Positions 15,378 to 15,536 of a DNA stretch of 40,000 bases are shown here, one piece after another (the stretch's first letter is position 1; every line of letters begins with the position of its first letter). The notes under the pieces are model-generated. The model searched no databases, was not told where the DNA came from, and was given only the letters and a program-made list of their open reading frames with translations. The stretch is from an uncultured Clostridia bacterium (GTDB taxonomy: Bacteria > Bacillota > Clostridia > TANB77 > CAG-508): contig CALXQB010000001.1 in NCBI GenBank assembly GCA_944390445.1, forward strand, positions 140 to 40,139, written 5' to 3'. The position numbers were made by a program, and so were the translations under genes.

Positions 15378-15458
15378 TTAAATTATATTGTGTGTGTGTG
15401 TGTGTGTGTGTGTGTGTGTGTGTGTGTTACTCTCCCAACGGTTTTCGCTTTCGTTCAT
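15378..15458 (-). CDS. Candidate 26-codon leader ORF MNESENRWESN(TH)6NII spanning the (CA)n tract
   Basis: ATG 9 nt after AAAAGGAG. About 40 nt downstream of the predicted start of the 15508-15536 promoter. My own translation; below the ORF-track cutoff. Confidence 0.35.
   Translation of the reverse strand: MNESENRWESNTHTHTHTHTHTHNII
15389..15427. repeat. (TG)19 dinucleotide microsatellite
   Basis: 39 nt of perfect TG repeat counted directly from the sequence. Confidence 0.99.
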
Positions 15459-15507
15459 CTTCTCTTTCTCCTTTTATTTCTTCACATGCTATTTTGTTCT
15501 TCTTTAT

Positions 15508-15536
15508 CTTATATGTTTTTTTGCTCTCTTTGTCAA
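15508..15536 (-). promoter_or_regulatory. Near-consensus sigma-A promoter facing the microsatellite and pilin-like gene
   Basis: Minus strand TTGACA, 17-nt spacer, TATAAG. Confidence 0.5.

Follow-up and report, generated by a model that had tools for sequence, protein, structure and literature searches.

A (CA)n leader-peptide module before pilin-like genes of gut Clostridia: a candidate phase-variation switch, most likely uncoupled in the copy with the longest tract

The 40,000 nucleotides (nt) of DNA analysed here in full (hereafter the window; positions 140 to 40,139 of contig CALXQB010000001.1, assembly GCA_944390445.1, from an uncultured Clostridia bacterium of the TANB77/CAG-508 lineage) contain a perfect dinucleotide tract, (TG)19 on the plus strand, at 15389-15426. 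It reads (CA)19 on the minus, transcribed strand and lies in the leader of a gene for a pilin-like protein of 448 amino acids (aa). Does this tract switch the gene on and off by slippage, as the initial annotation of the window had proposed, or does it do something else, or nothing? With slightly better than even confidence, we read it from comparative anatomy as the slippage-prone core of a leader-peptide phase-variation module that recurs before pilin-like genes in TANB77/CAG-508 relatives, the copy in the window being most likely uncoupled from the gene.

15389..15426, minus strand: slippage-prone tract (CA)19, which sets the leader frame (Tandem Repeats Finder, regular-expression scan, frame computation)

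Tandem Repeats Finder reported a period of 2, 19.5 copies and 100% matches at 15389-15427, and a regular-expression scan identified the tract as the sole dinucleotide run of >=5 units in the 40-kb window. From the base composition of the window, which is AT-rich (30% GC), the chance expectation of (TG)19 is about 1e-20 (our own arithmetic). An assembly artefact is unlikely because the tract, its flanks and the whole intergenic region are identical, base for base, in an independent metagenome assembly (L001/L003; 1 mismatch to the window over 5844 nt). The left flank is also present in a third contig (L004), and homologous modules occur in many samples; both an artefact and a chimera with a mammalian (host) CA microsatellite were rejected on these grounds, and the tract is as real and as perfect as the initial annotation had it. 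The L004 contig ends inside the tract. This break was considered as a sign of length heterogeneity and set aside: Logan assemblies are built from short k-mers (k=31), which are unable to span a 38-nt periodic run. With 19 units the window tract is the longest in the family described below, whose other members reach 18.

Read on the minus strand, the surroundings of the tract form a compact leader unit, and its parts are as follows.

15537..15548, minus strand: A-rich stretch GTAAAAAAAGAC directly upstream of the -35 hexamer; sister leaders have a similar AAAAA(g/c)(a/t)cTTGACAAAG context
15531..15536, minus strand: -35 hexamer TTGACA of the leader promoter (checked base by base)
15508..15513, minus strand: -10 hexamer TATAAG after a 17-nt spacer (checked base by base; alternative reading TAAGAT with a 19-nt spacer)
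15468..15475, minus strand: Shine-Dalgarno (SD) sequence AAAAGGAG, followed after 9 nt by the mini-ORF ATG at 15458-15456
15378..15458, minus strand: leader mini-ORF (small open reading frame) of 26 codons plus stop, MNESENRWESN(TH)6NII (translation; 49 homologous called mini-peptides)
15427..15438, minus strand: invariant motif TTGGGAGAGTAA, encoding (R/P)WESN, directly 5' of the tract (invariant in 5 loci; WESN invariant in 49 peptides)
15377..15388, minus strand: two-frame stop box ATATAATTTAAT, with TAA stops 6 and 11 nt past the tract and the third frame open
15301..15376, minus strand: third-frame extension (n a multiple of 3), ending at TGA 15303-15301 (frame computation)

The promoter, the SD sequence with its 9-nt spacing and the 26-codon ORF that had been proposed for this strand were all verified. 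The promoter is missing from the list of a promoter scan whose rule demands T at the last -10 position, since position 6 is G here; promoters of sister loci score 11-12 of 12. The tract begins about 80 nt downstream of the -10 hexamer, and the ATG of the pilin-like gene stands 368 nt past it, in agreement with an earlier estimate of some 370 nt. Frame outcomes were computed for several tract lengths. With n=19, 16 or 22 the mini-ORF ends ...NII-stop; with n=20 or 17 it ends ...TI-stop, at the second codon past the tract, as had been predicted for the gain of one unit; with n=18, 21 or 15 it reads on to the TGA at 15303-15301. Of the three frames of the window, two are therefore short (+6 and +11 nt) and the third is long (+88 nt), and n=19 places the mini-ORF in a short one. 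The extension expected upon loss of one unit was also recovered, with a correction: the TGA stands 11 nt, not 8, before the end of an inverted repeat (GGGTGTCGGCG, at 15289) that belongs to an element resembling a miniature inverted-repeat transposable element (MITE).

The layout recurs elsewhere. A peptide search with the extended frame, followed by a search with a profile of the matches, yielded 49 called mini-proteins of the form M-x5-[R/P]WESN-(TH)n, the residue before WESN being R, P, A or H. A scan of metagenome DNA with the 5' flank of the tract led to L049, AGAGGAG-N8-ATGTACAAAAGCGAAAACCGTTGGGAGAGTAA(CA)9ATATAATTTAAT, downstream of an xerD-like gene. The mini-ORF stands 120-350 nt ahead of full-length homologues of the 448-aa protein (L050, L051-54 and L062-63; 45% identity); in the L055 series the gene that follows it encodes a different membrane protein. 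Across five independent loci the distance from the ATG to the tract is exactly 29 nt, every ATG has an SD sequence upstream (GGAG or GAGG, 7-11 nt away, in 5/5) and TTGGGAGAGTAA is invariant, while the codons from the ATG to TTGGGAGAGTAA diverge freely between loci. The conservation of TTGGGAGAGTAA is at the nucleotide level: there is no synonymous change, even at its GAG and AGT codons (the genome has 30% GC), and the motif contains an SD-like GGGAGAG. The claim that the tract lies within a translatable, promoter-proximal leader mini-ORF thus gains from the comparison, since start position, SD sequence and frame layout are kept in all five loci.

In every sister locus two short frames stop 6-18 nt past the tract and the third runs for 55-103 nt. 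The stop box ATATAATTTAAT is identical in L049, L064, L050 and L051 (four locus types); L055 has a different post-tract sequence with the same two-frame-stop property. The third frame runs into a strong hairpin with a U-run behind it and stops in the loop, within the 3' arm or past the end, and a terminator stands between the leader ORF and the gene in L050, L051/L062, L055, L064 and L061. Some frames thus stop well before the hairpin and another within or beyond it in the sister loci, for which the following folding energies were obtained.

L050, terminator hairpin: -22.1 kcal/mol, z -6.0
L051, terminator hairpin: -25.5 kcal/mol, z -6.9
L055, terminator hairpin: -22.6 kcal/mol, z -5.5
L064, terminator hairpin: -20.2 kcal/mol (no z given)

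The hairpins of L050 and L051 were also called by a separate terminator scan, and across four loci 95% of hairpin cells are paired (versus 39-49% with the pairing slid). The L055 hairpin is unrelated in sequence and has the same layout, with the gene ATG about 20 nt past the U-run. Its mini-ORF is preceded by a promoter with 12/12 matches (TTGACA-17-TATAAT), and this is the only plausible promoter of the locus because the short distance between U-run and gene leaves no room for another. A pairing of GGGAGAGU with the 5' arm of the terminator was examined by hand as an antiterminator and dropped: one locus type has 6/8 pairs, the mismatch being central, and L055 has none.

Tract length varies at the sister loci. 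Next to xerD, n is 9, 10, 11, 12, 13 or 14 on three near-identical haplotypes, and by frame 5 contigs are extended, 12 end in NII-stop and 10 in TI-stop; these counts are free of gene-calling bias because an upstream in-frame ATG makes all three frames callable. At the DNA level the same locus has n=9 in L049 and n=13 in L064, and the locus adjacent to rplS has n=9 or 12. No intact family member has fewer than 9 units, the exceptions being decayed alleles. The variability between strains that the initial annotation had anticipated is therefore seen at a sister locus, in all three frames; at the window locus both spanning assemblies have n=19. One tract is interrupted: L055 (3033-3056) differs from L056 by a single A-to-C change, (CA)10-CC-CA versus (CA)12, which is silent in the long frame (ACA to ACC) and would make the tract more stable. 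Two decayed alleles were also noted. In the P0139 peptide the tract is collapsed and interrupted (N-T-H-A-Q) and fixed in the long frame. L061 (2975-3100) has kept the terminator and, of the upstream part, only CACGCACGA, with neither promoter nor ATG; a TTGACA-17-TAAAAT promoter lies just past its terminator.

The intact module would be ordered as promoter, SD sequence and ATG, ten codons ending in TTGGGAGAGTAA, (CA)n, two-frame stop box, terminator hairpin with U-run, and gene. The simplest reading of this anatomy is translation-dependent anti-termination set by the frame of the repeat. When n is a multiple of 3, a ribosome would enter or pass the terminator, the hairpin would be blocked and RNA polymerase could reach the gene (ON). 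With any other n, translation would end 6-18 nt past the tract, leaving about 20-30 nt to the hairpin, and the terminator could form (OFF), so that slippage by one CA unit would toggle expression. The idea that tract length sets how far ribosomes travel is retained as its most plausible output, with another target: in the intact sister copies this would be the terminator hairpin, not the hairpins of the MITE.

Such a mechanism has a precedent. In Streptococcus gallolyticus, GCAGA repeats in a leader peptide before a premature terminator were shown experimentally to control expression of the pilus loci pil1 and pil3: expression is low with short peptides, which stop 39 bp ahead of the hairpin, and high with longer ones, whose ends fall in the hairpin or beyond it, and deletion of the terminator locks cells in the high state (PMC3894217, Danne et al. 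2014). The likeness to the module, known here from sequence, extends to a promoter, a leader ORF with a repeat whose unit is not a multiple of 3, a premature terminator and a pilus-type gene, with short-frame stops tens of nucleotides before the hairpin and long frames that end in or past it. At the sequence level the window itself shares two features with pil1: a leader ORF with a ribosome-binding site and start codon of its own, immediately preceded by a promoter, and a frame-changing simple repeat within that ORF; unlike the streptococcal switch, it is without the 3' half of the terminator. The systems differ in the repeat (dinucleotide, (CA)9-19, versus pentanucleotide GCAGA, 13-23 units), in the host (an uncultured Clostridia clade versus a streptococcus, a different bacterial class), in the target (a stand-alone gene whose product has a type-IV-pilin-like N-terminus versus a sortase-pilus operon) and in the frames that matter (one of three gives the long peptide here, versus out-of-frame changes there), and the (CA)n module is found at several paralogous loci. 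There is no sequence homology between the two; they form a mechanistic class rather than a homology family, of which the module, judged by its anatomy, is a new and convergent member, with several loci in an uncultured gut clade. No other proven switch made of a repeat-driven leader peptide and a terminator was found beyond pil1 and pil3 in the literature searched.

More distant parallels concern single parts of the mechanism. In Escherichia coli pyrBI and rph-pyrE, termination is prevented when a ribosome translating an upstream ORF moves over the attenuator hairpin, as proposed here, and the early-stop frameshift of rph-1 lowers downstream expression; however, these textbook systems depend on sensing of nucleotide pools through polymerase pausing or on a fixed mutation, and no hypermutable repeat is involved. 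The (TA)n of Haemophilus influenzae hif is a slippage-variable dinucleotide repeat near a pilus gene that lies between -35 and -10, whereas (CA)n lies about 80 nt downstream of the -10 hexamer, inside a predicted ORF. In Clostridioides difficile, another member of the Clostridia, a heritable change of leader DNA decides whether a terminator forms before the surface-protein gene cwpV; this is a terminator switch in a surface-protein leader as well, but it works by site-specific inversion through a recombinase, with neither repeat slippage nor a leader peptide. In Helicobacter pylori, a variable-length G-repeat in the tlpB leader is targeted by the small RNA RepG, which tunes expression (PMC8295292); the variable simple repeat in an mRNA leader is common to both cases, whereas the effect described there is exerted by base-pairing of the small RNA with the repeat and not through reading frame or terminator.

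The leader of the window copy, which is regarded as most likely uncoupled, has three further features.

15321..15358, minus strand: attenuator-terminator remnant, 5' arm and loop AAAAACTATCTATCTGAAGCATAATAAAAAATATTATG (alignment; the 3' arm and U-run of L061, L050, L051 and L064 are missing)
15100..15289, no strand assigned: MITE-like insertion of 190 nt with terminal inverted repeats 15100-15135 and 15247-15289, the dominant hairpin of the leader RNA
15048..15075, minus strand: small pre-SD hairpin ACTCGTC-CAA-GGCGAGT just upstream of the SD sequence of the gene; sisters have TGTAGGGGTTCGTC-TTG-GACGAACCC at the same place

Compared with its closest relative, L061, the window is near-identical past the tract through ...ATATTATG (GCATAATA(A/T)AAAATATTATG) and then lacks TAAGAGATGGATAGTTTTTC, that is, the 3' arm and the U-run. 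What is left is an AU hairpin of 7 bp in a region of -8.2 kcal/mol (z -0.8), which is no better than shuffled sequence (sisters: -22 to -25.5 kcal/mol, z -6 to -7), so that the hairpin that the long frame would face is truncated. No minus-strand terminator is predicted anywhere in the window leader, and the intrinsic terminator of a pil1-type switch is accordingly missing there. The MITE begins 11 nt past the long-frame stop and dominates the fold of the leader RNA, which is strongly structured (z -4.1); it is absent from L002, another strain carrying the same gene. Because the 3' arm and the U-run have been lost and a MITE has been inserted, the window tract is most likely uncoupled from expression. 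By analogy with the terminator deletion of S. gallolyticus, read-through is probably constitutive in this copy, and the tract, still mutable, would be a relic, whose n=19 would mean OFF if the terminator were intact. The copy thus looks like a broken switch and is useful as a natural control.

Several observations sit around this region. L002 (1-57) and the window from 15097 on share the pilin-like gene (2 mismatches over 1778 nt) and differ completely upstream of ACAAAGAAATGAC; leaders are exchanged within the species. The MITE ends and many short units found in the leader of every pilin-like paralogue (L029, L030, L041, L050, L051, L061 and L064) consist of (T)GTAGGG followed by a GC-rich hairpin; they resemble repetitive extragenic palindromic (REP) units and bacterial interspersed mosaic elements (BIME) with a 5' GTAG, and are presumably linked to RAYT transposases. 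On the plus strand the pre-SD hairpin (15051-15071), followed by ATACATTTTT, is terminator-like and could stop antisense transcription coming from the side of the pilin-like gene.

A number of points weigh against the module as we read it. Only five independent DNA loci were compared, and the peptide-based sample is biased to the long frame, since short frames are below gene-calling length (the xerD locus being exempt). The gene that follows the L055 mini-ORF is not a clear homologue of the window protein, and the copy in L064/L049 has no recognisable promoter of its own. Covariation in the hairpin is weak: there is a single compensatory pair, and the observed pairing is reached by 51 of 500 shuffles. 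The invariance of TTGGGAGAGTAA is not accounted for by the model and could mark another mechanism, for example a protein or RNA binding site. Coupling of ribosome and polymerase is not universal in Firmicutes, albeit the S. gallolyticus case shows that it can work there. As for the window, the extent of the deletion is 13 nt by the MAFFT gap, 30 nt being equally plausible by eye, and the only two assemblies that span the tract both have n=19.

Could the window copy be a working phase switch in spite of the lost terminator, as first proposed, with ribosome travel along the 370-nt leader altering expression through Rho-dependent polarity, RNA stability, or the MITE or pre-SD hairpins? It retains an intact promoter, SD sequence, ATG, tract and three-frame layout, its perfect tract is longer than any other in the family, the 448-aa gene is intact and conserved, and the leader RNA has the strong structure mentioned above. 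We nevertheless think this unlikely: the long frame would add only 77 nt of translated RNA and leave about 280 nt untranslated, there is no U-run terminator on the minus strand, the MITE is missing from L002 with the same gene and so is no designed part of a module, and n is 19 in both assemblies. Only a little less likely, and still doubtful, is a functionless microsatellite in a repeated leader cassette, whose mini-ORF would be untranslated and whose conservation would reflect recent spread or gene conversion among paralogous leaders. The leaders are indeed mosaics of REP-like units, heptamer inverted repeats and MITEs that are swapped between strains, TTGGGAGAGTAA is conserved at the nucleotide level without synonymous change, and P0005-type homologues have the same promoter and no mini-ORF. 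Yet the codons between ATG and motif have diverged while the ATG position, the SD sequence, the two-frame stops and the overlap of third frame and terminator were kept, even in L055 with its unrelated post-tract sequence and hairpin; moreover, neutral tracts are expected to shorten or to gain interruptions, whereas no member apart from the decayed alleles has fewer than 9 units.

Two further explanations appear far less probable still. In one, the tract acts as DNA, either as the spacer of an internal promoter of the hif type, GTAACA-(CA)n-TATAAT, or as a Z-DNA-prone modulator of transcription. With n=9, the smallest n among intact members, GTAACA-17-TATAAT is indeed formed across the tract (L050 3029-3057), TATAAT follows the tract in 4/5 locus types, and alternating purine-pyrimidine runs can adopt Z-DNA. 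The spacer is, however, usable at n=9 only, while n ranges from 9 to 19 and n=10 and n=11 are the commonest at one locus; the promoter-spacer model was rejected for this reason. L055 has no TATAAT and keeps the two stops, a transcript starting there would not include the ATG of the leader and would run into the terminator all the same, and the main promoter is located some 80 nt upstream of the tract, which cannot be its spacer. Nothing in the analysis supports the Z-DNA alternative of the initial annotation. It is equally hard to believe that the mini-ORF is an amino-acid-sensing leader (stalling at ACA/CAC according to threonine or histidine supply) or encodes a functional small peptide, with the terminator ending a small gene. 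Attenuators of the his and thr type are characterised by runs of one or two amino-acid codons before a terminator, and WESN is invariant in the 49 peptides; but the downstream genes encode membrane-anchored pilin-like proteins rather than biosynthetic enzymes, all three frames occur among near-identical strains, so that 2/3 of the alleles are without the long peptide, the post-tract peptide is dictated by the hairpin and wholly different in L055, and no alternative antiterminator pairing was found.

If the repeat-frame attenuator that we favour is real, the same logic built on an unrelated dinucleotide repeat would mean that the mechanism has evolved more than once. The signature TGGGAGAGTAA(CA)n plus hairpin would then allow ON and OFF states of surface proteins to be read straight from metagenomes. 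More tentatively, and with less than even confidence, we suggest that TANB77/CAG-508 gut Clostridia possess multi-locus (CA)n attenuators that each switch one paralogous pilin-like protein independently, giving a clonal population a combinatorial surface repertoire in the manner of Neisseria opa. No earlier description of phase variation driven by repeats would then exist for an uncultured commensal clade. Here TTGGGAGAGTAA might be an added control element (a pausing internal SD sequence, or a regulator site keeping ribosome and polymerase in step), and the window and P0139 alleles might be natural locked-on escapes.

What would be switched, and how the locus is set in its genome, can be seen from the neighbouring features, given in minus-strand order.

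17399..15660, minus strand: gene for a GH18/SH3 protein, first in order
15660..15683, minus strand: left imperfect 24-nt direct repeat GTAAAACAATATTTAGAAGAATAA, identical with the 3' end of the GH18 gene, bounding a 2025-nt cassette
Between the GH18/SH3 gene and the 448-aa gene: spacer of 638 nt with promoter, mini-ORF, tract and MITE
13675..15021, minus strand: downstream gene, 448 aa, with a pilin-like N-terminal helix (KG|ITLVAL, no Glu5) and a C-terminal part with weak FGE-sulfatase-like signals
13635..13658, minus strand: right imperfect direct repeat GTAAAAAATATCTTTAACGAATAA, the other cassette boundary
After the 448-aa gene, minus strand: small ORF, then ctsR, mcsA and mcsB

The N-terminus of the 448-aa protein, MKEEKG|ITLVALVVTVVVLIILAG, has a short basic leader ending in Gly and then a hydrophobic helix, as prepilins do, and G6, I7, T8 and L9 are invariant in 37 homologues. 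Position +5 is Ala instead of Glu, and the protein stays below the curated pilin threshold. It has no Pfam or NCBIfam match above threshold: Pfam N_methyl gives E 0.37 for the window protein (36/37 homologues match at E<=1, the best at 0.0088), the NCBIfam GspG and pilin models give E 0.055-0.097, far under their cut-offs, and pilin N-termini of the PDB give E 0.08-0.9. The AlphaFold model has a helix at 10-27 and a second one at 36-62; it is poor overall, with a mean predicted local distance difference test score (pLDDT) of 56 and values <50 for the C-terminal 150 residues. More than 1300 relatives were found in metagenomes, as single genes in varied housekeeping contexts and always after long non-coding leaders; the nearest variants are only 65% identical to the window protein. 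In another genomic context, between an SLT gene and mutL, such 65%-identical homologues have the promoter motif GACTTGACAAAG...TATAAGAT about 400-500 nt upstream and no mini-ORF, and TATAAGAT is also kept in L029-type leaders.

Relatives of the source organism, which is known from a metagenome-assembled genome of an uncultured gut Clostridia bacterium, include Clostridium sp. CAG:273, which sits in TANB77/CAG-508 under GTDB names (table, PMC13508870). In L005, the closest species representative (93-95% nucleotide identity), the small ORF and ctsR come directly after the GH18 gene. A segment of 2025 nt (15659 to 13635), comprising promoter, leader, MITE and gene, is therefore an insertion/deletion difference, being absent from L005 (compare L005 5717-5740), and the flanking imperfect repeat, a copy of the GH18 3' end, suggests a cassette-like insertion. 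Pilin-like proteins of TANB77 have been reported to stimulate dendritic cells and to improve the response to anti-PD-1 (PMC11680825); these are smaller, come from a pilus gene cluster and do not belong to the family of the window protein.

An origin of the module from phages was rejected, the motif being without a match among viral contigs. A known RNA family in the leader was likewise rejected: Rfam 15 has nothing at gathering score in the window leader and chance-level matches only at E<=1, and it gave nothing relevant in the sister loci. Some leaders without a mini-ORF (L030, about 3575-3700, and L037, about 2570-2700) carry another inserted module that ends CCTCCC...GGGAGG...GGAGGGTTTTTCT; it has no Rfam match and could be another attenuator. 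Several leaders (L029 3630-3900; L037, L038, L051 and L064) contain long inverted repeats made up of AT-rich heptamer arrays (TAATGAA / ATTATTC), whose copy number varies by strain; several contigs break there.

Elsewhere in the window, a T-box leader of ordinary type is found at 6348-6571 on the minus strand (122.9 bits, above its gathering score), upstream of an 893-aa ORF (3510..6191). At the 3' end of this gene (3400-3511), a 23-nt unit, ACAGAGGGACGGAGCTTTTGTGA, is present about twice and is followed by about 2.4 copies of its reverse complement, the whole forming a large palindrome.

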